A stretch of DNA of 64,000 nucleotides from a virus (IMGVR_UViG_3300032330_002145:1-64000); one strand, 5' to 3'; positions 1,736 through 18,558 are shown, counted from the stretch's first letter. Notes: generated by a model not told the origin, from the letters alone. Program-made: numbers and translations.

Positions 1736-1756
1736 AATAAAAAAGAATTGACACAA

Positions 1757-1781
1757 AAAAACCCCTCAATGAGGGGTTTTT
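1757..1781. terminator. Bidirectional intrinsic terminator
   Basis: aaaaaaacccctc-aat-gaggggttttt between the convergent ORF and tmRNA. Confidence 0.8.
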
Positions 1782-1785
1782 AATT

Positions 1786-2183
1786 TGGTGGAGATGCGGG
1801 GGTTCGAACCCCGGTCCAAATATGTCGGATATAAAACACTACACGCTTAGGTCATTGTTTTTCTAAACAATCCGAAACTTCACAATTCCCTTATTTTATA
1901 GTGGTTCGGTTTACTGAGAACTAATCCTCCACTTTGTTCCTTTTTGGGTAGGAACCACACCACAACTACGACTTCTGTTGCAAGGTTATATGTCTGCCGA
2001 CCCCTTTGTATTCTAATCTTAGATTAGGCTACTTCTACCGTTTCTTCAGTGCGAACAAGTCCTACTGCAGAAAGTTTGTTGATTACGTTTCCGTTTATCA
2101 TTTAAGCCAGTTATACAGGGTTAGCTTAGCCCCGACGTGCGTTTTATAACAGATTCATACCTGTCAAATCCAAAAACATCCCC
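1786..2183 (-). ncRNA. ssrA: tmRNA (transfer-messenger RNA), about 398 nt
   Basis: Minus strand starts GGGGAUGUUUUUGGAUUUGACAGG and ends GGUUCGAACCCCCGCAUCUCCACCA. Acceptor stem has G3-U70; T-loop and encoded CCA present; internal tag ORF at 2024-2092. Confidence 0.95.
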
Positions 2184-2205
2184 ATATACTCAAAGAACTA
2201 TATTA

Positions 2206-2213
2206 CAAATATA
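2206..2213 (-). promoter_or_regulatory. Bacteroidota-type -7 promoter element (TATATTTG) upstream of tmRNA
   Basis: Matches TAnnTTTG about 23 nt upstream of the tmRNA 5' end; overlaps a TATTTATA motif. Confidence 0.55.
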
Positions 2214-3344: not shown

Positions 3345-4169
3345 ATGGAAAAAAATATTGATTTTTTAAAAGAAGTTTTGTCTGTTCCGACAAAAACTTA
3401 TCAAGAAGATTTAATGATTGAATTTTTGGAAAACTGGTTAACAGAAAATAATTTACCTTTTTTCACAGATAAACATCAAAACATCTACGTAACAAAATTA
3501 ACTGAAAAAGTTGATGAGGATTTTTATTTTCCTTGTGTTGTTGCTCATACGGATACCGTTCACAAGTTGGACGTAATTAATATCCGAGAAGAAAATTTAC
3601 CAAATGCTCAGAATGAATTAAAGTTGGCGTTAAAGGCTTACAATAATTTTGACGAACCAACAGGTATTGGTGGTGACAATAAGTGTGGGGTCTTCGCTTG
3701 TTTGGAATTATTAAAGGAATTACCAAATCTTAAAGTTGCATTTTTCGTATCTGAAGAAACAGGTTGTCATGGTTCAAGAATGGCAGATAAAGATTTTTTC
3801 AAAGATGTTGGTTATGCTATTCAGTTTGACGCACCTGAAAATTGGATGGTGACAGAAATCTGTATGGGGACACGATTGTTCAAACGAGATTCCGATTTTT
3901 TTGAAACTTGTAAATCAGTGATTAATGAGAACTTCAATGGAAGGGAGAAATATGAATCACATCCTTATACCGATGTTTACGCTCTTAAAAACGCCTTTGA
4001 TTTCGCCTGTATTAATTTCTCAATAGGTTATTATGATTACCATACAAGAAATGAATATGTGGTCGTTGAGGATGTTATAAATGGTATTAAAACAGGTAGG
4101 GAACTAATTGAAAAATTAGGGAATAAATTCTACAAGGAAATCTGTAACGATAATCCATATTTCAAATAA
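3345..4169 (+). CDS. M20/M28/M42-clan zinc peptidase
   Basis: VAHTDTVH, GGDNKCG, SEETGCHGS, QFDAP and C-terminal DYHT metal-binding motifs. Confidence 0.85.
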   Translation: MEKNIDFLKEVLSVPTKTYQEDLMIEFLENWLTENNLPFFTDKHQNIYVTKLTEKVDEDFYFPCVVAHTDTVHKLDVINIREENLPNAQNELKLALKAYNNFDEPTGIGGDNKCGVFACLELLKELPNLKVAFFVSEETGCHGSRMADKDFFKDVGYAIQFDAPENWMVTEICMGTRLFKRDSDFFETCKSVINENFNGREKYESHPYTDVYALKNAFDFACINFSIGYYDYHTRNEYVVVEDVINGIKTGRELIEKLGNKFYKEICNDNPYFK

Positions 4170-4181
4170 AAAAAAGGGGGT

Positions 4182-6224
4182 TTATTCCCCCTTTTTCTTT
4201 CTTGTTTTTTTCTGTTTGTCCTCAATGATTTTTATTTTAATCTCATTGTTTTCAACATATAGGATATACGAAATATCTTCTTTCAAGTCACCTTTAAGAA
4301 CTTCTTCAGATACATAATCCTCAATTTTGTCTTGGATTGCTCTCTTCAACGGTCTAGCCCCGTAAGTTTCGTCAAATCCGACTTCTGAGATTAAATCAAT
4401 TACTGAGTCCTCATAACTGATATTGTATTTTAATGAAACCAATCTACCACAAAGTTTATCAACTTCAAGTTTAACAATCTTTTTAATATCTTCTTTTTGT
4501 AAACTGTTGAATACAATTACTTCGTCAATACGGTTAAGGAATTCAGGTGCGAAAAACTTTTGAAGTTCTTTCTTTAGAATGTCTCTTTTTAATTCCTCTT
4601 GGATATAAGTGTTTGTATCATTTTTGAATCCAATACCGACTCCAAACTCTTGTAATTTTTTAGCTCCAATATTAGAAGTCATAATTATTACACAGTTTTT
4701 GAAATTGATTTTTCTACCTAATCCATCAGTGATATGACCGTCATCTAAAACTTGTAGTAATGTTGAGAAGATATCTTTGTTAGCTTTTTCAATCTCATCA
4801 AATAATATTACTGAGTACGGTTTGTTTTTAACTTGTTCAGTTAATTGACCACCTTCATCATAACCAACATATCCTGGAGGTGAACCTATCAATCTTGAAA
4901 TTGTATGTTTTTCTTGGAATTCTGACATGTCAATTCTAATCAGATTGTCTTCACTTCCAAAAATTTGTTTGGCTAATTCTTTAGCTAATAATGTTTTACC
5001 AACACCTGTGGAACCTAAAAATATAAATGAACCAATAGGTCTGTTAGGGTCTTTAATACCTAATCTATTTCTTCTAATAGCCTTTGCAATTTTAGAAACG
5101 GCTGGTAACTGACCAATAACTTTATCTGATAAGTTATTTTCAATCGAAGATAAAGCTTTTGTTTCGTCAGAATTTAACTTTGAAATAGGTATTTTAGTCA
5201 TGTTAGACACTACTTCATATACCATTTCTACAGTAACTTCTTTTTTCTGAAGAGACATTTCCTCCTCAAATTTTTTCTTTTCTTCGTCTAATTTATTTAA
5301 GATTTTCTTTTCTTTATCTCTTAAATTTGCTGCCTCTTCATAATTTTGTTTTTTAACAACGTCAATTTTTAACTTCTTAATGTCAGAAGCTTCAGATTTT
5401 AATTTCTCAATGATTTCTGGCATCTTAACATCAACTTGACTTCTTGCCCCTACTTCATCAATAATATCAAATGCCTTATCAGGGAATTCTCTATCTGTGA
5501 TATATCTTTCAGCTAAATCAACACAAATATTTAGGACTTCATCATTATATAAAACTTTATGATAGTCCTCATATCTATTTTTTGAGTTTCTTAAGATTTC
5601 TAAAGTTTCGTCTTTAGTTGCAGCATCAACAATTACTTTTTGAAAACGTCTTTCTAATGCTCCATCCTTTTCAAAGTTTTTTCTATACTCATCTAATGTG
5701 GTTGCTCCAATACATTGGATTTCACCACGAGCAAGTGCTGGTTTAAAGATGTTAGATGCATCTAATGAACCCGAAGAATTACCCGCTCCAACAATTGTAT
5801 GGATTTCATCAATGAATACAATGATGTTTGGTGCATTCTGAAGTTCTTCAATAATAACTTTCATCCTTTCCTCAAATTGTCCACGATATTTTGTACCAGC
5901 AACTATTGATGTCATATCCAACGATACAATACGTTTGTCCATTAGATTTCTTGGACATTCACCATTGAAGATTTTAATTGCCAATCCTTCAGCGATTGCT
6001 GTTTTACCACAACCTGGCTCACCAATAATAATTGGGTTATTTTTTTTACGTCTTGATAAAATCTGAGCAATCCTTTGGATTTCTCTTTCTCGTCCAACAA
6101 CAGGGTCTAATTTACCTTGTTCAGCAAGTTTGATTAAATCCCGACTAAAATTATCAAGTACAGGTGTTGACGAGTCACCCGCTTTATTTTGTTTTTTACC
6201 GTCACCATCCATAGATTCAATCAT
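4182..6224 (-). CDS. clpC: ClpC-like Hsp100 ATPase lacking the N-terminal Clp-repeat domain
   Basis: Two AAA+ modules (GEPGCGKT/FIDEIH; GSTGVGKT/LFDEIEKA), UVR-like middle domain (QNYEEAANLRD), IGF ClpP-docking loop (GVGIGF), GARPLKRAIQ. Confidence 0.9.
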   Translation of the reverse strand: MIESMDGDGKKQNKAGDSSTPVLDNFSRDLIKLAEQGKLDPVVGREREIQRIAQILSRRKKNNPIIIGEPGCGKTAIAEGLAIKIFNGECPRNLMDKRIVSLDMTSIVAGTKYRGQFEERMKVIIEELQNAPNIIVFIDEIHTIVGAGNSSGSLDASNIFKPALARGEIQCIGATTLDEYRKNFEKDGALERRFQKVIVDAATKDETLEILRNSKNRYEDYHKVLYNDEVLNICVDLAERYITDREFPDKAFDIIDEVGARSQVDVKMPEIIEKLKSEASDIKKLKIDVVKKQNYEEAANLRDKEKKILNKLDEEKKKFEEEMSLQKKEVTVEMVYEVVSNMTKIPISKLNSDETKALSSIENNLSDKVIGQLPAVSKIAKAIRRNRLGIKDPNRPIGSFIFLGSTGVGKTLLAKELAKQIFGSEDNLIRIDMSEFQEKHTISRLIGSPPGYVGYDEGGQLTEQVKNKPYSVILFDEIEKANKDIFSTLLQVLDDGHITDGLGRKINFKNCVIIMTSNIGAKKLQEFGVGIGFKNDTNTYIQEELKRDILKKELQKFFAPEFLNRIDEVIVFNSLQKEDIKKIVKLEVDKLCGRLVSLKYNISYEDSVIDLISEVGFDETYGARPLKRAIQDKIEDYVSEEVLKGDLKEDISYILYVENNEIKIKIIEDKQKKTRKKKGE

Positions 6225-6602: not shown

Positions 6603-8933
6603 ATGAGTAAATTTGAATCTATATTAAAAAGTTTTCATTCTAAAGACAATCTTAATTCTAAGATTTGGAAAGAAAGTGCGAATGATATAACTATTAACCC
6701 AAAAGTTAGAAAAAAACTTTTGGAAATTGCAAATGAATTTATTGAATTTTTAAAAGTTGATGTTGTAGTTTCTGATATTATTATGACAGGTTCTTTGGCT
6801 AATTATAATTGGTCAGAATTTTCAGATATTGATTTACATATTGTTGTTGATTTTGAACAATTCAGTAAAGAACAGTTACCTTTATACGAAGAACTTTTTA
6901 GATTAAAGAAGACTCTATTTAATGACAAACATGATATAACAATTTATGGTTATGAGGTTGAGTTATATGTTCAAAATGAATCAGAATCACATTTTAGTAG
7001 TGGAGTTTTTTCAGTATTAAATGATGAATGGATTGTTGAACCAAAAAAAGAAGATGTAAAAATTGATATTGGTTTAATAAAAAATAAAGCGGAACAATGG
7101 ATGAGAATCATTGATGGTGTTATTGAAAACGCATCGGATGAACCACTTGATGAAGCTAAAAAAATCATTTCAAAATATAAAGATAAATTAAAAAAATATA
7201 GAACCTGTGGGTTAGAGTCAGGTGGGGAATATTCTGACGAAAATTTAGTTTTTAAAATTTTAAGAAGAAATAACTATATTCAAAAGTTATTTGATTTTGA
7301 GGTTGAAATGGAGGATAAAGAACTTTCTTTAAATGAAAGTAGAATGAAAAAAATAATACTTGAAGGTTCTAAAGATAGTTTAGACCCAAGTGTATTAAAA
7401 GCATTACAATCTGTTGAAACTACTTACGGGGTAAAAATAACTGATGATAATGTTAATGATGAATTGGAACAAGAAAAACAAATCTATCATGATAATTCAG
7501 GAATAGATTCTTCAGCATTATCCCAATTAAAAAAGTTATTATCTGATTTATATTCTAAATTCCCAAACGCACCTGAAGACTCTAACAGTAATTGTGATGG
7601 AGTTAAAGGTTGTGTTTCAGGATATAGAGGATATTCTACACAGGTTAAAACTTTTGGTAGTAAAATCAGTAGAGATGGTGGTGTATCTAATAGACAAAAA
7701 TTTTCAGCTTTACCAGGATTTTCTCAACATCACACAGGTAAAGGATTTGATATATTAAGTGTTGAACCATCGTGGTGGAATAAAAATTCTGACATTAAAT
7801 CATGGGTTGCAAATAACGTATGTAAGTATGGATTTAAAGTATCTTATCCAACACAGGGAGTTTTAAGAAGTGCTGAACCTTGGCATTTATTCTATACTGG
7901 ACAATTTTGTGGTGGTGATAAAGAGGAAAAAACTCCTGAAACAATAAAAACTCCTGAAACAATAAAAACTGTAGAAAAAGAAAAAACACCTGAAACAATA
8001 AAAACTGAATCAGGTAATTTAATATCCGATATAACAAATTTTTCAAAAAGTTCAAGGACATTGACTAATTTAAAAAAAGAAGGTGGTAGATTATCTTTTA
8101 ATTTAGAAGTACAAAATTTACAAAAAGCATTACAATTTTTAAAATATTCTTTACCAAAATGGGGTGCTGATGGTAAATTTGGTAATGAAACAGAATCGGC
8201 ATTAAGAAAATTTGAATTGGCAAATGGATTAGAAGAAGATGGTAAATTTGATTCTGAAGATGCGGAAGTTTTGGTTAAAAAGTTGATTAGTTCAGGATAC
8301 GAAAAAACTGATAACCAACAAATACAAGTAACTCCAAGTGAAGTGGAAAAAGATAAAGTTGTTGCAACTACAACTAATGATGATGAATATGTTGTTTTAA
8401 TTCCACCAAACTATCAGGGTAAAAATGTTCACGTATTATTTGGAGGTTCTCACACATCAGGATATTCAAAAAATAGTTTTAAAACTGAAGCTATACAAAA
8501 ATATGGTAATATTTTGAAACCTTACGCTACTAACACTATAATTGTGGTAACACATCATATGAATACCGTAAGTAATGTACAAAAATATGTTAGTGAAAAA
8601 TATGGTGCAAATGTTACGTCTCTCGCAGGGTTTTCACAAGGTGGTAAAGAAGCTTGGAGACACGCATCGGATAGTTCATATAAATTAGTTGGGTTAATTG
8701 ACCCATCAACATATCAGACAGATGTTCAGTTTGGTAGTGGTACTTATTTATACTGTGACCCTAAAAATTGGGGAAAAACAGGATTTTACGGAGAGACAAG
8801 ACGAAAATTAGAATGGTATTGTGAGAACAAAGAAAAATACTCTGGTCACGTAACTTGTTTTGATAAAGGTGGATGGCATATGAATTTTGGTATTTTAAAA
8901 TCGTTCTACGACACATACGGTTCAATGATTTAA
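6603..8933 (+). CDS. Multidomain protein: Pol-beta-type nucleotidyltransferase + M15B (VanY-like) peptidase + peptidoglycan-binding domain + alpha/beta hydrolase
   Basis: GSLANYNW..SDIDLH; SQHHTGKGFD and EPWH; LQKALQFLKY...GADGKFGNETESAL; GFSQGG nucleophile elbow. Confidence 0.75.
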   Translation: MSKFESILKSFHSKDNLNSKIWKESANDITINPKVRKKLLEIANEFIEFLKVDVVVSDIIMTGSLANYNWSEFSDIDLHIVVDFEQFSKEQLPLYEELFRLKKTLFNDKHDITIYGYEVELYVQNESESHFSSGVFSVLNDEWIVEPKKEDVKIDIGLIKNKAEQWMRIIDGVIENASDEPLDEAKKIISKYKDKLKKYRTCGLESGGEYSDENLVFKILRRNNYIQKLFDFEVEMEDKELSLNESRMKKIILEGSKDSLDPSVLKALQSVETTYGVKITDDNVNDELEQEKQIYHDNSGIDSSALSQLKKLLSDLYSKFPNAPEDSNSNCDGVKGCVSGYRGYSTQVKTFGSKISRDGGVSNRQKFSALPGFSQHHTGKGFDILSVEPSWWNKNSDIKSWVANNVCKYGFKVSYPTQGVLRSAEPWHLFYTGQFCGGDKEEKTPETIKTPETIKTVEKEKTPETIKTESGNLISDITNFSKSSRTLTNLKKEGGRLSFNLEVQNLQKALQFLKYSLPKWGADGKFGNETESALRKFELANGLEEDGKFDSEDAEVLVKKLISSGYEKTDNQQIQVTPSEVEKDKVVATTTNDDEYVVLIPPNYQGKNVHVLFGGSHTSGYSKNSFKTEAIQKYGNILKPYATNTIIVVTHHMNTVSNVQKYVSEKYGANVTSLAGFSQGGKEAWRHASDSSYKLVGLIDPSTYQTDVQFGSGTYLYCDPKNWGKTGFYGETRRKLEWYCENKEKYSGHVTCFDKGGWHMNFGILKSFYDTYGSMI
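7928..8006 (+). repeat. KTPETI-encoding 18-bp tandem repeat (linker)
   Basis: aaaactcctgaaacaata twice plus a third degenerate copy. Confidence 0.8.
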
Positions 8934-8992
8934 AAGTAATTTTTCAATTGCCAATATATTTATATATAAAATAATTTTTTAAATTAAAAAAA

Positions 8993-10258
8993 ATGGGAAA
9001 ACTAAGACCAATTGGTAGTGAAAAACTACAAGGTATGGATAAAATTAAACGTATGATTGAAATCTCTACGTATAAAGAGAATATTCCTAACCCTTTAAAT
9101 GAAACTTCATCACACGAATATGATATTAAATTAGCTGATGGTAATAGATATCATATCGTTAAAGAAAAATCAGGATATGTTATTAAAAAAGGATTAACTG
9201 AATCTACTTCGGATTATGTTGAACCTATGAAAGGAAGAAAATATTATTCTTCATATTCACAAGCATTTAAACGTTTAAATTTAATTGCTAAAGAAGTTAA
9301 TATTAATGAAGGTTTTGAAAAAAACATTTCATTATTTAACGAAGGTGATAACGATGAAGTTAAATATTATTTGAAAACTTCAACTAACGAACAAGATGTT
9401 CCGGCAGAAAATCCAACTCCTGCTCCCGCACCTGCTCCCGCACCTGCTCCCTCACCTGCACCCGCACCTGCACCCGCACCTGCACCTGAAACGGATGATA
9501 TGGGTGGTGAAGAATCTTCTGAAATGGATGACATGGCTGATGAACCAATTGGTGGAGAAGAAGACAACGAAGAGGAAGTATCTTTTAAGTCAATTCAAAA
9601 GTTAACAGGTAAGTTAGCTCAAAAATTAAGAGAATTGATGGGTAATGAAGATGAAGAAGAAATTTCTTCTAAAGATAAAAAATATGTAATTAATTCAATA
9701 CTTTCAGCCATTGATTTAGAATCTATGGAAGAAGATGATAAAGAAGATATTATCGACAAATTAGAAGGTGAAGAAGATATGGAAGGTTCTGAAGAATCTT
9801 CTCAAGGCGAAGAGGAAATGGATTTTTCTGATGATATGGCTGACCAAGAAATTGGTGGTGAAGAAGAGATGGGTCAAGAACCAACACCTCCAGCTGCACC
9901 AATGGAAATGGGTGAAATGTTTGATGAAGAAGATGAATTTACACCTCACAGACCAAGATTTAGAAATAAAGTTGGACACAGAGGTATGAATACCGATGAC
10001 GTATTCGAGGGAATGTTTAACGAGTCAAAAATAGACAAAGTATTAGAAAAATATTTTGAACCAAAAATTAAAAACCAAGTAGATTTAACTTCAAAGATTG
10101 AAAGAATTTCTGAAACAACACTACAAGAATCATCAGCTAAGAGTTTTATTAATAAATTCCCTTCAGCTAAATTGATTGGTAAAAATAAATTAGGTAATAT
10201 TATTTTTGAAACTAATAAAGGTAGAAAAGGTATAACACCAAAAGGAACTATCCTATAA
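8993..10258 (+). CDS. Hypothetical head-associated protein with Pro-Ala repeat and acidic regions
   Basis: PAPAPAPA tract, E/D/M-rich low complexity, several LxE sites, TATTTAT upstream, lies in head cluster. Confidence 0.65.
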   Translation: MGKLRPIGSEKLQGMDKIKRMIEISTYKENIPNPLNETSSHEYDIKLADGNRYHIVKEKSGYVIKKGLTESTSDYVEPMKGRKYYSSYSQAFKRLNLIAKEVNINEGFEKNISLFNEGDNDEVKYYLKTSTNEQDVPAENPTPAPAPAPAPAPSPAPAPAPAPAPETDDMGGEESSEMDDMADEPIGGEEDNEEEVSFKSIQKLTGKLAQKLRELMGNEDEEEISSKDKKYVINSILSAIDLESMEEDDKEDIIDKLEGEEDMEGSEESSQGEEEMDFSDDMADQEIGGEEEMGQEPTPPAAPMEMGEMFDEEDEFTPHRPRFRNKVGHRGMNTDDVFEGMFNESKIDKVLEKYFEPKIKNQVDLTSKIERISETTLQESSAKSFINKFPSAKLIGKNKLGNIIFETNKGRKGITPKGTIL

Positions 10259-10665
10259 TGTATTTAATTTATGTCAATGAATTAGGACCAAACTACAAAG
10301 GAGATAATATTTACGAATTTATTTTCTCCAAAAGTTTGGAAGATGTGTGGGGTGATTCATGGGAATCAAAACCGGCAAACGGATACCCCTCACCACCTGA
10401 TTTAGAACATATAGATAAAGTTGGAGTTTTGAAGAATGACACAATTTCGTTGTCAGTAATTCAAAACTCTGATTATTTTTCAATGACTGATGCACAGGAT
10501 GGTGTTATTGCATTGGGTTGGGAAAATGAGTCAGAAAATATTAATTTTGACTTAAAACAAAGATTAGTTTTCAGATTTGGAGAACCCGAAGAATCTGTAA
10601 AAAATAAACTTTATGAACGAGATATCGTTCTTGAATTTGAAAAAAAAGTTATTTATGAACACTAA
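10258..10665 (+). CDS. Conserved hypothetical phage protein
   Basis: 135-aa ORF coupled by TAATG overlap to the previous gene. Confidence 0.7.
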   Translation: MYLIYVNELGPNYKGDNIYEFIFSKSLEDVWGDSWESKPANGYPSPPDLEHIDKVGVLKNDTISLSVIQNSDYFSMTDAQDGVIALGWENESENINFDLKQRLVFRFGEPEESVKNKLYERDIVLEFEKKVIYEH

Positions 10666-11614
10666 CAGAAAAATATTAGATTTGGTAAATCACGGATTTA
10701 GTGGTACACTTATTTCAGAATTAAATGATAATCAGATAAATTCATTACACAAAAGATTAACTGAATCAAAAAAAGAAAGTAAGGAAGAAACCCAAATTGT
10801 GACGACACAGTTGGATTCAAAAAATCCACAAGACATGGCTAAATTAAATGGTATGTTAAAAAACCCTACATCATTACAAAATAAGAATGTGCAAGTTAAA
10901 GAAACTGAGATGACTGAAGATGATGATATTAATATTTCTTCAGACCCTGACCGTAGTGCTGATGGAATGGGTATGTTTGAAAAAAAAGATATGACTGAAA
11001 AATTTGAGTCAAAAGCACAACAAAAATTATTTTGGGCGAAATGTGGAGAAGGAAAAACTAAAGAACAAAAAAAATGGTGTAAATTAGCGAGAGAATTTTC
11101 TGATAGTACATCAAAAAAACAGTTCAAAAACATGCCTGAAAAAAAAGAAAATAAAGAAAGTTATTTAGATATGGTCGGAAAAACTATGAATAAAAATATG
11201 TCAAATAAAATTTCAGATATTAAACCGGGTTTAAAATTTGAAAGTAGATTACAAAGTAAGATTGAAAATTTGGTTGAAAGACATGTTTCACCAAAGATTT
11301 CAAAAAGAGATTTATTGGAAACAATTAAAAATATGTCAATAAATGAAGCGGGTAAGGAGGTTGAAACACCTGTTAAACCTGGTGTTGATACACCGTCAAA
11401 ACCTAAACCCGGTACTCCTTATCAACCAAAACATCAGCCGGCACCTAAAGCGGGTAAAGAAGTTGAGACACCTGTTAAACCAGGTGTTGATACTCCATCT
11501 AAACCTAAACCTGGTACACCGTATCAACCAAAACATCAACCAGCTCCAAAGGCGAAAAAAGAAAAATTCCCTTCATGGTTGTCATTTAAATCAATCGGTA
11601 TTAATTTAAAATAA
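10655..11614 (+). CDS. Hypothetical head-associated protein with 34-aa duplication
   Basis: Likely start is ATG at 10655 (MNTNRK), in frame with the called ORF; Lys/Pro-rich C-terminus. Confidence 0.65.
   Translation: MNTNRKILDLVNHGFSGTLISELNDNQINSLHKRLTESKKESKEETQIVTTQLDSKNPQDMAKLNGMLKNPTSLQNKNVQVKETEMTEDDDINISSDPDRSADGMGMFEKKDMTEKFESKAQQKLFWAKCGEGKTKEQKKWCKLAREFSDSTSKKQFKNMPEKKENKESYLDMVGKTMNKNMSNKISDIKPGLKFESRLQSKIENLVERHVSPKISKRDLLETIKNMSINEAGKEVETPVKPGVDTPSKPKPGTPYQPKHQPAPKAGKEVETPVKPGVDTPSKPKPGTPYQPKHQPAPKAKKEKFPSWLSFKSIGINLK
11348..11551 (+). repeat. 102-bp tandem duplication (AGKEVETPVKPGVDTPSKPKPGTPYQPKHQPAPK x2)
   Basis: Identical peptide, synonymous differences at third codon positions. 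Confidence 0.95.
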
Positions 11615-12980: not shown

Positions 12981-14741
12981 ATGACTAAAGAACAAGTAAT
13001 GATTGAGTATGTAAGATGTATGAAAGATACACCTTATGCTCTTAAAACGTATTTACAAACTTACGATAATACTGTGTCAAGATATGTTCCATTGGAACTA
13101 TTTCCTGACCAAATTAGTTTGTTAAAAGACTATGAAGAACACAATGAAAATATTGCTTTAAAATATAGACAGGCGGGTGTGTCTACAGTGACCGCAGCTT
13201 GGGTTTCAAAGAAATTAGCATTTGCTAAAAAAATAAAACCTGAAAAGATTTTGATTATTGCCAATAAACTTGATACATCACAAGAAATGGCAAACAAAAT
13301 CAGAGCATTTATTGGTCAATGGCCCGATTGGGTTGGTATTGATTTTGCAGCTGAAAAAAATTCACAAAAACATTATAAATTAAATAATGGATGTGAAGTT
13401 AAGGCGGTTGCAACATCTAAAGATGCCTTGAGAGGTTTCACTCCGACCATATTGATTTTTGACGAGGCTGCCTTTATTGAGGCTGATAGTGATTTTTGGG
13501 CGGCTTGTATGGCGTCCCTATCTACGGGTGGTAAAGTAATAGTTGTATCAACACCAAATGGGTATGACCCAATTTATTATGAAATCTATGACCAAGCAAA
13601 CAGAAATATGAATGACTTCAAAATTTCTGAAATGTATTGGTATCGTGACCCAAGATATACAAGAGATTTATATTTGGTAAAAACAAAAGATATAATTCAT
13701 TATCTTTTAAACAAAGAAGAATATCCTCTTAATGATATTATTAGTTGGGAACCAATACAATTTTCCGATAGAAACTATGATGATTTAAAAAAAATTATTG
13801 AGGACGGTTACAAACCATGTTCGGCTTGGTTTGAAAGTATGGTTAAAAAACTTAAGTACGACAAACGTAAGGTTTCTCAGGAGTTGGAGTGTAATTTCTT
13901 AGGTTCGGGTGATAACGTGTTTGATTCTAATATGATGCAAAATATTAGAGAAAATATGATTCGTGAACCACAAAACAAGATGATGGGAAATTCATTATGG
14001 ATATGGAAGGAACCTGTATTAGGTCACAAGTATGTTATGGGAGTTGACGTTTCAAGGGGAGATAGTGAGGACTTTAGTTCTTTTCAAATAATTGATTTTG
14101 ATGAAAGAGAACAGGTTGCGGAATTTGTTGGAAAACTACCTCCTGACACTATGGCTGAGATATGTTATAAATGGGCTAATATGTATTCTTGTTTTATTGT
14201 GATAGATATCACAGGTGGTATGGGTGTTTCCACGTCAAGGAAATTACAAGAAATGGGTTATAAAGATTTATACGTTGATGGTGTTGACACAGCAAATAAA
14301 TGGAAATACGACCCAAAGGCAACTGAAAAAATTCCTGGAATCAATTTTAATAATAAACGTGTTCAAATAATTGCGTCGTTTGAAGAGGCATTGAGACATG
14401 AATTTAAAATTTATAGTTCAAGATTGTTCAATGAAATGAATACATTTATTTATGTTAATGGACGACCTGACCACCAAAAAGGACAACATGATGACTTGAT
14501 TATGTCACTAGCAATGGCTTGTTATGTTGCGGAATCTTCATTTACAAGTTTAAAAAGAGTTACAGAACAAACAAAGGCGATGTTGGATTCATGGAGTGTT
14601 GCCAATAATGATAATGTTAGTAAACAAATTGAATTCAATCCAGTTATACCAACTCTTACTGATAATATGAATCAATCTAGCAGGAATAGCTACTCAAAAG
14701 AGGATTATATGAAATACGGTTGGTTATTTGGAGTTAGGTAA
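12981..14741 (+). CDS. terL: Terminase large subunit (T4 gp17-like)
   Basis: KYRQAGVST Walker A, ILIFDEAAF Walker B, VSTPNG coupling motif, nuclease GVDVSRG and HDDLIMS. Confidence 0.95.
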   Translation: MTKEQVMIEYVRCMKDTPYALKTYLQTYDNTVSRYVPLELFPDQISLLKDYEEHNENIALKYRQAGVSTVTAAWVSKKLAFAKKIKPEKILIIANKLDTSQEMANKIRAFIGQWPDWVGIDFAAEKNSQKHYKLNNGCEVKAVATSKDALRGFTPTILIFDEAAFIEADSDFWAACMASLSTGGKVIVVSTPNGYDPIYYEIYDQANRNMNDFKISEMYWYRDPRYTRDLYLVKTKDIIHYLLNKEEYPLNDIISWEPIQFSDRNYDDLKKIIEDGYKPCSAWFESMVKKLKYDKRKVSQELECNFLGSGDNVFDSNMMQNIRENMIREPQNKMMGNSLWIWKEPVLGHKYVMGVDVSRGDSEDFSSFQIIDFDEREQVAEFVGKLPPDTMAEICYKWANMYSCFIVIDITGGMGVSTSRKLQEMGYKDLYVDGVDTANKWKYDPKATEKIPGINFNNKRVQIIASFEEALRHEFKIYSSRLFNEMNTFIYVNGRPDHQKGQHDDLIMSLAMACYVAESSFTSLKRVTEQTKAMLDSWSVANNDNVSKQIEFNPVIPTLTDNMNQSSRNSYSKEDYMKYGWLFGVR

Positions 14742-15834: not shown

Positions 15835-17637
15835 ATGGAAAACAATCAAAATAATCAATTAACGGTTTGGCAAAAATTATCCCAAGCATTTGGGCCTAAT
15901 TCTTTACTGAATCAAGATTATCCGACTTACAAATACGATAAAGAGGAATTATTAAAAACCACTTCTAAACAAGAATACGATACAGAACTTTTACAAGCTC
16001 AACAAACGTATTATTTAGCAAACCAGTGGACTAAAATTGAAAGTAATTTATATACTCAAGCAGTATATTATGAACCAACAAGATTGGCATCGTTCTATGA
16101 CTATGAGTCAATGGAATATACTCCTGAGATATCTGCTGCTTTAGATATCTATGGTGAAGAATCAACAACTGTTGACCAAAATGGTTATATGTTACAGATT
16201 TATTCTGAATCTAAACGTATCAAATCAATCTTGGCAGATTTATTTAACAACGCATTAGATTTAAATACCAACTTACCTATGTGGACAAGAAACACATGTA
16301 AGTATGGTGACAACTTTGTTTACTTGAAATTGGATGCCGATAAAGGAGTTGTTGGATGTATGCAATTACCAAATATTGAGATTGAACGTCTTGAAAGAGG
16401 TATGGCAGCAAAATCTCAAAATGTTGATGAACCAAAAGAACAAAAAGGTTTGAGATTTAAGTGGAAAGCTAAAGACATGGAATTTAATTCATGGGAAATG
16501 GCTCACTTCAGATTGTTAGGTGATGATAGAAAACTTCCTTACGGTACTTCAATGTTAGAGAAAGCTCGTCGTATTTGGAAACAATTATTGTTATCTGAAG
16601 ATGCTATGTTGATTTACAGAACATCAAGAGCACCTGAAAGAAGGGTGTTTAAAGTGTTTGTTGGTAACATGGATGATAAAGACGTTGAACCGTATGTACA
16701 AAGAGTTGCAAACAAGTTTAAGAGGTCTCAAGTTGTTGATAATAACACAGGTAATGTAGATATGAGATTCAACCAAATGGCGGTTGACCAAGATTACTTT
16801 ATTCCTGTTCGTGACGCGGCTGCGGCAAATCCTATTGATACTTTACCTGGAGCTCAGAACCTTTCTGAGATTGCCGATATCGAATATATTCAAAAGAAAT
16901 TATTAACGGCTCTTCGTGTTCCTAAAGCATTTTTAGGATTTGAAGAAGTAGTTGGTGATGGTAAAAACTTATCATTACAAGATATTCGTTTTGCTAGAAC
17001 AATTAACAGAATTCAAAAATGTATGATTGCAGAATTAAATAAAATTGCAATTGTTCATTTATTTATTTTAGGATTTGAAGATGAGTTAAATAACTTTACT
17101 TTAGGTCTTACAAATCCATCCACACAAGCCGACTTACTTAAAATTGATGTTTGGAAAGAAAAAATACTTCTATATAAAGACGCTGTTACCGCAATTGAGG
17201 GTATTGCACCTGTATCTGTTTCTTGGGCTAAGAAACATGTTTTAGGATTCTCAGATGATGAAATTAAACTTGATTTACAACAACAACGTATTGAAAAGGC
17301 AGTTGGAGCTGAATTAACTAATACCCCAACAATCATTGTTCATACAGGTATATTTGATAATGTTGACAAACTTTATGGAAGTAAATCAGGTAGTACCGCA
17401 TCTGCAGGAGCTGCTGCACCACCACCACCTGGAGGTGAATTAGGTGGAGGAGCACCAACACCACCACCGGCGGGAGGACCTGAAGGAGGATTACCTGAAA
17501 GTGAGAAAAAAGATAATTACAATATTCTTTTAGAATCCGAAGGTTTTATTGACGATGATTCTTTCATTGATTTATCAAGAGGAAAAAATTATTTAGGTGA
17601 GATTGAAGAACAATTGAGTAAAATATTAAGAGATTGA
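15835..17637 (+). CDS. gp20: Portal protein (T4 gp20-like)
   Basis: YGTSMLEKARRIWKQL, EDAMLIYRTSRAPERRVFKVFVGNM, EDYF-like QDYFIP, TLPGAQNL, ALRVP. Confidence 0.95.
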   Translation: MENNQNNQLTVWQKLSQAFGPNSLLNQDYPTYKYDKEELLKTTSKQEYDTELLQAQQTYYLANQWTKIESNLYTQAVYYEPTRLASFYDYESMEYTPEISAALDIYGEESTTVDQNGYMLQIYSESKRIKSILADLFNNALDLNTNLPMWTRNTCKYGDNFVYLKLDADKGVVGCMQLPNIEIERLERGMAAKSQNVDEPKEQKGLRFKWKAKDMEFNSWEMAHFRLLGDDRKLPYGTSMLEKARRIWKQLLLSEDAMLIYRTSRAPERRVFKVFVGNMDDKDVEPYVQRVANKFKRSQVVDNNTGNVDMRFNQMAVDQDYFIPVRDAAAANPIDTLPGAQNLSEIADIEYIQKKLLTALRVPKAFLGFEEVVGDGKNLSLQDIRFARTINRIQKCMIAELNKIAIVHLFILGFEDELNNFTLGLTNPSTQADLLKIDVWKEKILLYKDAVTAIEGIAPVSVSWAKKHVLGFSDDEIKLDLQQQRIEKAVGAELTNTPTIIVHTGIFDNVDKLYGSKSGSTASAGAAAPPPPGGELGGGAPTPPPAGGPEGGLPESEKKDNYNILLESEGFIDDDSFIDLSRGKNYLGEIEEQLSKILRD

Positions 17638-18373: not shown

Positions 18374-18558
18374 TTCTCGTTTTTCATTTTCTGAGCGTAA
18401 ATTGCCTTGTTGATTTGATTTCTACGATTACTAGATTTTTTAACAAAAGTTTTACGGTTAATTAATTCCTGACTTTGACGAGTCTTAATTACCTTATTTT
18501 TCAATTGTTTTAAGGCTTTCTCTAATGGTGTGTTTTTATCTATTTTAACTATTAACAT
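18370..18558 (-). CDS. rpsU: 30S ribosomal protein bS21 (phage-encoded, Bacteroidota type)
   Basis: 62 aa; MLIV...LEKALKQLKNKVIKT....EL..RK.FVKKS..RRNQI.KAIY; antisense inside the head module, as known for bS21 phages. Confidence 0.9.
   Translation of the reverse strand: MLIVKIDKNTPLEKALKQLKNKVIKTRQSQELINRKTFVKKSSNRRNQINKAIYAQKMKNEN

Follow-up and report, generated by a model that had tools for sequence, protein, structure and literature searches.

A tmRNA with a long, conserved and non-canonical tag in a putative bS21 phage and its viral relatives

Introduction

Complete tmRNAs have been catalogued in phages since at least 2014, including those of mycobacteriophage Bxz1 and its cluster and of Bacillus phage G, alongside TLD-only forms such as that of DS6A, which is thought to act by titration of SmpB (Hudson, Lau and Williams, 2014; PMC4131195). 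ARAGORN reads a tag of 25 residues in Bxz1 (ATDTDATVTDAEIEAFFAEEAAALV, ending ALV) and one of 13 residues in phage G (AKLNITNNELQVA, ending QVA). Among bacteria, the Mollicutes (Mesoplasma florum) are without active ClpXP and carry long ssrA tags that are read by Lon (PMC9382460). Long, non-canonical tags are therefore already known, both from phage tmRNAs (Bxz1 and phage G) and from bacteria (the Mollicutes). Al-Shayeb et al. (2020) noted tmRNA and SmpB in huge phages, in a single sentence that gives no tags (PMC7162821). Chen et al. (2022) described bS21 phages from freshwater lakes, with Bacteroidetes as the predicted hosts; in their gene table, ClpC has its best hits in Flavobacteriales and the SsrA-binding protein its best hit in Cytophagales, and the available parts of their text and supplements make no mention of tmRNA (PMC9723584). 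In the literature that we searched, a tmRNA of bS21 phages, a tag conserved across a clade, and a fixed link to a ClpC without its N-domain were not found together.

Here we describe a tmRNA from a 64,000-nucleotide stretch of viral DNA (hereafter the window). Like the tmRNAs of Bxz1 and phage G, it is a complete tmRNA in a large phage genome, with a tag unlike the canonical ALAA type. The tags themselves, however, bear no sequence relation to one another; the hosts are Actinobacteria and Bacillus in those cases and most likely Bacteroidota here; their tmRNA genes lie in a tRNA cluster, whereas the bS21-phage tmRNA stands alone beside clpC and a peptidase gene; and the tag of the window's family can be traced through at least 176 relatives. 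The Mollicutes tags are likewise far longer than the E. coli type, lack an LAA end, and provide a precedent for a tag changing with the protease, but they have no sequence similarity to the tag described here and occur in organisms without active ClpXP, whereas the likely hosts of the present phage have a clpP–clpX pair. The genomes reported by Al-Shayeb et al. (2020) and Chen et al. (2022) are of the kind to which the window belongs, with more than 200 kb, translation genes, the bS21 gene itself, and predicted Bacteroidetes hosts.

Results

The genome and its likely host

The window covers the opening 64 kb of an IMG/VR record of 72,927 bp, to which CheckV assigns a completeness of 22%, implying a genome of approximately 330 kb. 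Its G+C content is about 30%, and its genes include a T4-type large terminase, a portal, and a ClpC-like ATPase. Three genes bear on its placement:

12981–14741: terminase gene
15835–17637: portal gene
18391–18549, minus strand: phage gene for ribosomal protein bS21 (PF01165), which marks a 'bS21 phage'

The bS21 gene lies on the reverse strand just downstream of the portal and terminase genes, which is the layout of bS21 phages, and PF01165 is matched in G000 as well as in three complete relatives, whose genomes measure 321, 322, and 304 kb. A search by way of the ClpC protein yields at least 584 related viral stretches. The window fits a huge (~300–320 kb) freshwater bS21 phage, a placement made from gene content and genome size, and the bS21 gene together with the published host prediction suggests that its host is most likely a member of the Bacteroidota. 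An unusual fusion is also present in the window, where a 776-residue ORF (6603–8933, plus strand) combines an NTP_transf_2/Polbeta nucleotidyltransferase with a VanY D-Ala-D-Ala carboxypeptidase and peptidoglycan-binding domains.

The tmRNA gene

The only RNA gene that ARAGORN calls in the window is a one-piece tmRNA on the minus strand. Its parts outside the tag frame, together with the flanking elements, are as follows:

2190–2213, minus strand: upstream motifs, candidate promoter elements (TATATTTG at 2213–2206 and AGTTCTTTGA at 2199–2190)
1786–2183, minus strand: one-piece tmRNA (ssrA) gene (ARAGORN and Rfam RF00023; same place in the whole record)
2177–2183, minus strand: 5' strand of the acceptor stem, GGGGAUG, pairing with CAUCUCC (1796–1790) and containing G3:U70
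2103–2133, minus strand: pseudoknot 1 region, in which UAAGCU (2128–2123) pairs with GGCUUA (2108–2103)
2013–2027, minus strand: helix 5, the hairpin CUAAUC-UAA-GAUUAG over the stop codon (sequence and RNAfold)
1789, minus strand: discriminator A, read from the sequence
1788–1786, minus strand: encoded 3' CCA, read from the sequence
1754–1776, minus strand: intrinsic terminator, CCCCUC-AUUG-AGGGG with a T run, 10 nt past the CCA

Rfam RF00023 places the gene at the same coordinates as ARAGORN, scoring 125.5 bits where the gathering threshold is 47, with E 1.2e-48, and the match extends from end to end of the model (1–374). G3:U70, the alanine identity pair, is kept in all of the 53 distinct sequences of the family, and covariation is seen in the acceptor stem (GGGGGUA/UACCUCC, GGGAGUG/CACUUCC, GGGUCCG/CGGAUCC). 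The T-arm of the window tmRNA reads GGGGUUCGAACCCC. Encoding of the 3' CCA, as in the window copy, is seen in 26 of 52 distinct relatives; those without it must depend on a CCA-adding enzyme.

In the pseudoknot 1 region, the first stem appears as a helix in the Rfam alignment with good posterior probability, and GGGG (2133–2130), which is complementary to CCCU (2120–2117), may form the second. The region of PK2 to PK4 aligns with low posterior probability and several non-canonical pairs. A consensus fold from MAFFT and RNAalifold recovered few helices and little long-range structure; the acceptor stem and helix 5 were counted directly instead. The hairpin over the stop codon that was described in an earlier note, written from the sequence before this analysis, corresponds to helix 5: its arms, CUAAUC (2027–2022) and GAUUAG (2018–2013), are real, but the loop reads UAA (2021–2019) and not, as the note had it, UUA. 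RNAfold lengthens this helix by an outer GUA/UAC stem, and in most relatives the last tag codons, GUA GCN, are paired in the hairpin with bases further downstream, and changes on the two sides compensate for each other.

Flanking elements are also shared among relatives. A hairpin followed by a T run occupies the same place as the terminator in most listed relatives, with differing stem sequences, and copies of TATATTTG and AGTTCTTTGA precede the tmRNA by comparable distances in divergent relatives. The motif TAnnTTTG, considered as a host promoter signal, occurs 124 times in the window against an expectation of 113 ± 10 and is therefore not enriched, such that the support for a promoter consists of positional conservation only.

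Each of the three complete relatives has a single copy of the tmRNA. Identity between the window tmRNA and those of its relatives ranges from 53 to 80%, which suggests that the family is old and not a recent capture. At the blastn level, similarity to the tmRNAs of 401 Bacteroidota genomes is limited to the last ~65 nt, which argues against a recent host copy, and the GenBank phage collection yielded no blastn match to the window tmRNA.

The tag frame

The elements that define the tag frame are:

2099–2101, minus strand: in-frame AUG, three codons before the resume codon, apparently incidental
2093–2098, minus strand: AUAAAC, the context upstream of the resume codon (U at −5, A at −4)
2092–2090, minus strand: resume codon GGA (ARAGORN; Rfam alignment)
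2027–2092, minus strand: tag frame, 22 codons from GGA to GCC, encoding GNVINKLSAVGLVRTEETVEVA (ARAGORN, Rfam, and family codons)
2029–2027, minus strand: last tag codon, GCC
2024–2026, minus strand: stop codon UAA of the tag frame

The coding part given by ARAGORN (gene positions 92–160, window 2092–2024) yields a tag identical to that proposed in the earlier note, with 22 residues ending in VEVA, or a tail of 23 residues when the Ala carried on the tmRNA is included. The same note had taken GGA after AUAAAC as the resume codon, and both ARAGORN and the Rfam alignment, in which GGA sits on the consensus resume codon, agree with it. The A at −4 is present in all 62 relatives compared and the U at −5 in 53; these positions correspond to the frame-setting U85 and A86 of E. 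coli tmRNA.

The tag frame is open in every one of these 62 relatives, at the same place and over 21–22 codons, whereas stops interrupt the +1 frame in 58 and the +2 frame in 56. An ALAA-type tag in another frame, which the earlier note had named as an outcome that would overturn its reading, is not encoded by the window tmRNA; it was also looked for among the 62 relatives, and no conserved alternative frame ending in LAA was found. Codon-position entropy across the 62 is 0.86/0.33/1.13 in the tag frame, and pN/pS is 0.46 there as opposed to 1.68 in the +2 frame. In the 74 different nucleotide versions of the frame, codons switch between families at fixed residues: Leu12 is encoded by TTA in 44 and CTT in 26, Arg14 by CGT in 47, AGA in 12, and CGC in 9, while Gly1 alternates between GGC and GGA and Gly11 between GGT and GGA. 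That residues remain fixed while their codons change in this way is the strongest of these lines of evidence and points to selection on the peptide and not on an RNA motif. The stop codon varies as well (TAA in 68 of the 74 distinct frames, TAG in 5, and TGA in 1).

Variation of the synonymous type starts at the GGN codon, and the codon preceding it varies non-synonymously (AAC, GAC, CAC, ACT, AAT). The in-frame AUG that the earlier note had pointed out is indeed present at 2101–2099, three codons upstream; however, only 3 of the 62 relatives have an AUG at this position and many have an in-frame stop 4–9 codons upstream, such that it appears to be incidental and without a role. The last two codons, GUA GCN, form part of helix 5, and the V-A end of the tag is therefore constrained at the level of both RNA and peptide. 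We consider it very probable that the gene produces a functional tmRNA with the tag GNVINKLSAVGLVRTEETVEVA.

Conservation and virus restriction of the tag

With the window tmRNA as query, nhmmer recovers a tmRNA in 62 of 81 clpC-anchored loci, at a distance of ~2.3 kb and up to ~4.8 kb beyond clpC; most of the loci without a match stop short of the expected position. One locus, L029 (15,553 bp; clpC at 8001–10034), extends 5.5 kb beyond clpC and has no tmRNA by nhmmer or Rfam, and the gene may have been lost or relocated in some members of the clade. At least 176 related viral contigs carry the same gene, and in each the frame is open over 21–22 codons. The comparison of tags across relatives, named in the earlier note as a check, shows a tag conserved over a large phage clade, with selection at the peptide level.

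The tag begins with a head of the form G-N-V-[IL]-[ND]-K-[LM]-x-x-[VIL]-G-L-[IVL]-R, continues with an acidic stretch, and ends in V-A. Its first half is hydrophobic, basic, and nearly invariant, with the strongest conservation in the first 14 residues. Ala is the last residue in all 74 distinct frames and is preceded by Val in 68, while the position ahead of V-A may hold V, A, S, T, E, or N. In IMG/VR, the pattern of the tag head occurs in at least 120 viral contigs; among the matches listed, 117 of the 118 loci fetched by this pattern are tmRNAs, and their tags have 21 residues in 96 cases and 22 in 20, with a VA end in 108 of the 117. Across 596 Gb of sequence from 185,579 cellular species representatives, the pattern has 7 matches, none of which is a tmRNA, although the pattern is strict and would miss a cellular relative of the tag that had diverged further. 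Each of the 7 falls within a protein gene, and a single sulfatase-like gene of Flavobacteriaceae accounts for 5. Judged from this distribution and from the codon variation described above, the tag is a peptide specific to the phages and maintained by selection.

Several further possibilities were considered and set aside. An amphipathic helix over tag residues 3–15 would have a hydrophobic moment of 0.54, a value reached by 78% of shuffled sequences. On inspection, the prohead-protease motif (L/I)xE is inconsistent across tag variants. The tmRNAs found near viral smpB genes mostly have canonical tags and probably represent host flanks of prophages at ssrA, and they therefore carry no information on phage tags.

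Comparison with tags of the likely host class

The earlier note had called the tag long and non-canonical, and it proves to be both when set against those of the likely host class, since the tags of the sampled Bacteroidia (26 Bacteroidia and 2 Flavobacteriaceae) have 8–10 residues and mostly end in A[LM]AA. ARAGORN gives GEDNYALAA for Polaribacter and GENNYALAA for Algibacter, and the tags of the 26 further Bacteroidia are nearly all of 9 residues, with the form G[EN]xN[YF]A[LM]AA; those of 28 other Bacteroidota have 9–10 residues and end in ALAA, RLAA, AVAA, or ALVA. The phage tag is thus more than twice the length of the 9-residue tail typical of its likely Bacteroidota hosts. The host-class tags also conform to the canonical ssrA degron (approximately 8–15 residues, with a (Y/F)A(L/M)AA or LAA end), whereas the phage tag does not.

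The phage gene and the one-piece tmRNA of Bacteroidia nevertheless share their architecture, their length (~360–410 nt), the G3:U70 acceptor pair, a stop codon in helix 5, and a resume codon that lies at approximately position 92–100 and encodes Gly; several Bacteroidia tags start with GN. They differ in that the Bacteroidia tags are of 8–10 residues ending in A[LM]AA and the phage tag is of 22 ending in VEVA, with its conservation greatest in the first 14 residues, and in that nucleotide likeness is found only at the 3' tRNA-like end. Between the tags themselves, only the first Gly (sometimes Gly-Asn) and the last Ala are common to the two groups, which is consistent with a Bacteroidota tmRNA as ancestor and a long separate evolution since.

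Candidate partners

Two genes near the tmRNA encode proteins with a potential bearing on the fate of tagged chains:

3345–4169, plus strand: M20/M42-like metallopeptidase (Pfam PF01546, phrog_4191)
4182–6224, minus strand: ClpC-like double-ring AAA+ unfoldase of 680 residues (Pfam, translation)

The phage ClpC begins at the first AAA module and is without Clp_N, and it has both Walker A motifs, a UVR middle domain, and a GIGF loop of the type by which such unfoldases dock on ClpP. Among the matches listed, clpC and the M20-like peptidase gene lie within 4.5 kb in all 56 tmRNA loci with enough flank (at least 4.5 kb). The tmRNA, clpC, and the peptidase gene are on different strands and do not form one operon, and since the block is a conserved core beside terminase, portal, and bS21, their linkage may represent inherited gene order. 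Neither ClpP nor Clp_N was found in the genomes of the three complete relatives; the phage ClpC must therefore work without the usual N-domain adaptors and, if with any ClpP, with that of the host. Flavobacteriaceae genomes encode a clpP–clpX pair and two long Clp_N-bearing ATPases.

SmpB is encoded in two of the complete relatives, G003 (137.9 bits) and G004 (112.9 bits), but was not found in the third, G005, nor in the 73-kb record, which represents 22% of a genome. The C-terminal tail of SmpB is intact in both; the G003 protein has 143 residues and the usual GKKxYDKR tail. In G003 and G004, smpB lies ~95 kb from the tmRNA. On contig IMGVR_UViG_3300017917_002818 (L260, L033), smpB is ~1.5 kb from the tmRNA, and tmRNA, smpB, peptidase gene, and clpC are clustered. 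Elsewhere, near smpB on other viral contigs, ARAGORN finds tRNAs with a CTA anticodon (L261:3636–3708 and L285:3173–3246), which would read amber codons and are labelled Pyl; these hint at stop-codon recoding in those phages.

Detection and neighboring RNA features

ARAGORN, the customary tool for finding tmRNAs, detected only 9 of the 62 family tmRNAs, and in two of the nine (L071 and L073) it reported a spurious tag, at gene positions 236–277. It is therefore probable that tmRNA is under-reported in surveys of huge phages.

Other RNA features were observed around the tmRNA in relatives. A GOLLD RNA (RF02032; 285–330 bits, full length) lies ~1.2–2 kb beyond the tmRNA in four of them:

L067:11887–12296, minus strand: GOLLD RNA
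L025:13582–13991, minus strand: GOLLD RNA
L044:14256–14670, minus strand: GOLLD RNA, directly abutting a tRNA-Met gene
L018:14763–15168, minus strand: GOLLD RNA

No GOLLD RNA was found in the window, which has only 1.8 kb beyond the tmRNA, and a copy may lie past the contig end in the window's phage. In L067, a group I intron (RF00028, 94.9 bits; 10641–10865, plus strand) splits the T-loop of the tmRNA, and an odd duplicated ...CCTCCAC... directly follows the tmRNA 3' end in L044, L025, and L018. ARAGORN also finds tRNA-like genes of 92–94 nt with a four-base anticodon (ccct) in L018 (15799–15892, minus strand) and L039 (10838–10929, minus strand), in each case by a long tRNA-Pro(tgg); these genes may contain introns or resemble frameshift suppressors.

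Discussion

The explanation that we favor, and regard as reasonably probable, is that this gene specifies a working tmRNA of a bS21 phage, whose tag is a handling signal distinct from the G[EN]xN[YF]A[LM]AA of its host. If used in infection, as seems likely, the tmRNA would receive its Ala from the host AlaRS by way of G3:U70 and be delivered by SmpB, phage-encoded in part of the clade and host-supplied otherwise, to ribosomes stalled on broken or stop-less mRNAs, which are expected to be plentiful late in infection. Translation would restart at GGA and stop at the UAA in helix 5, freeing the ribosome, and the unfinished protein would gain Ala plus GNVINKLSAVGLVRTEETVEVA, or, elsewhere in the family, a comparable tag of 21–22 residues. 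The phage would in this way keep ribosomes cycling in massive late protein synthesis, while itself setting the fate of the aborted products.

Selection on the peptide, together with its difference from that of the host, suggests that it sets the fate of tagged chains. Degradation is the most likely fate because the carboxyl end is invariantly non-polar, and the tag would thus most likely be a degron. That its fate differs from that of the host tag is a tentative proposition, against which we slightly incline. The earlier note had suggested that tagged proteins might escape host ClpXP or be routed to the phage ClpC; the VA end is no argument for such an escape, because the E. coli tag with an LVA end is itself a fast degradation signal, giving LacI a half-life of ~13 min as compared to ~8 min for LAA (PMC3511798). 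Among possible readers of the tag, host ClpXP is possible by analogy with such variants, the phage ClpC acting with host ClpP is attractive on account of gene linkage, and Lon is a candidate by likeness to the long tags of Mollicutes.

If host ClpX reads the V-A end as it would LAA or LVA, the tag may be an ordinary ClpXP degron whose proteins share the fate of host-tagged ones, with the extra 12–13 residues forming a spacer or binding a host adaptor. The half-life of the LVA variant, the clpP–clpX pair of Flavobacteriaceae genomes, the AVAA and ALVA ends of some Bacteroidota tags, and the absence of a phage-encoded ClpP in the three complete relatives are all consistent with such a degron, but the best-conserved part of the tag, its first 14 residues, would be needless for a purely C-terminal signal, and the residue before V-A varies whereas host tags hold [LM] before AA. 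This reading is possible but on the unlikely side. An alternative is an insulated quality-control channel, in which the phage tmRNA, with phage SmpB where the latter is encoded, would mark aborted proteins with a phage-only degron that is ignored by host ClpX and bound directly by the N-domain-less phage ClpC, which would dock on host ClpP by its GIGF loop, with the M20-like peptidase trimming the products to finish the process; aborted phage proteins would thereby be kept apart from host ClpXP. The proximity of clpC and the peptidase gene to the tmRNA in 56 of 56 sufficiently flanked loci among the matches listed, the retention by ClpC of both Walker A motifs, the UVR middle domain, and the GIGF loop, the lack of Clp_N and ClpP in the three complete relatives, and the precedent of the Mollicutes, where a long tag is tied to a protease switch (PMC9382460), lend this channel some credence. 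Nonetheless, the three genes lie on different strands and not in one operon, the linkage may simply be an order inherited within a core block (terminase, portal, and bS21), and L029 has clpC without a nearby tmRNA, and we judge the insulated channel decidedly unlikely in this full form.

Still less likely, in our assessment, is that the tag is no degron at all, and that what is selected is ribosome release, or competition with the host tmRNA–SmpB system, with a peptide that only inactivates, aggregates, or relocates truncated proteins or shields them from host quality control. Work on lambda–P22 hybrids reportedly indicates that, for some phage–host pairs, it is ribosome release by tmRNA and not proteolysis tagging that matters for growth, which would favor this reading. 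TLD-only phage tmRNAs, such as that of DS6A, are also thought to act by titrating SmpB (PMC4131195). Ribosome release alone, however, would not hold 14 residues nearly invariant through synonymous switches, and the carboxyl end stays non-polar, like that of known degrons (Ala in 74 of 74 distinct frames, preceded by Val in 68). Finally, the frame could be wrong, with another resume codon leading to an ALAA-type tag, or the gene could be a relic, either a decaying copy or an attachment-site fragment of host ssrA. ARAGORN does choose a different, short tag elsewhere in L071 and L073, but these alternatives are not conserved, and both RNAs bear the family tag at its normal position. Against either version stand the closure of the other frames in 56–58 of 62 relatives, none of which shares a conserved alternative ending in LAA, the full-length RF00023 match, the confinement of Bacteroidota likeness to the last ~65 nt, and the single copy in each complete relative; we find this reading scarcely credible.

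The favored explanation, a working phage tmRNA with a handling signal of its own, offers a testable handle, in that it concerns one 22-residue peptide with a candidate reader adjoining it, the N-domain-less ClpC, and with host ClpXP and Lon as alternatives. If the tag were orthogonal in Bacteroidota, it would be a useful tool as a degron, and the insulated channel, if true, would be without viral precedent as a tag-and-destroy pathway that has its own pair of tag and reader. More broadly, these observations bear on why phages carry tmRNA: the at least 176 natural variants of this virus-specific tag indicate that the peptide itself, and not only ribosome release, is under selection.
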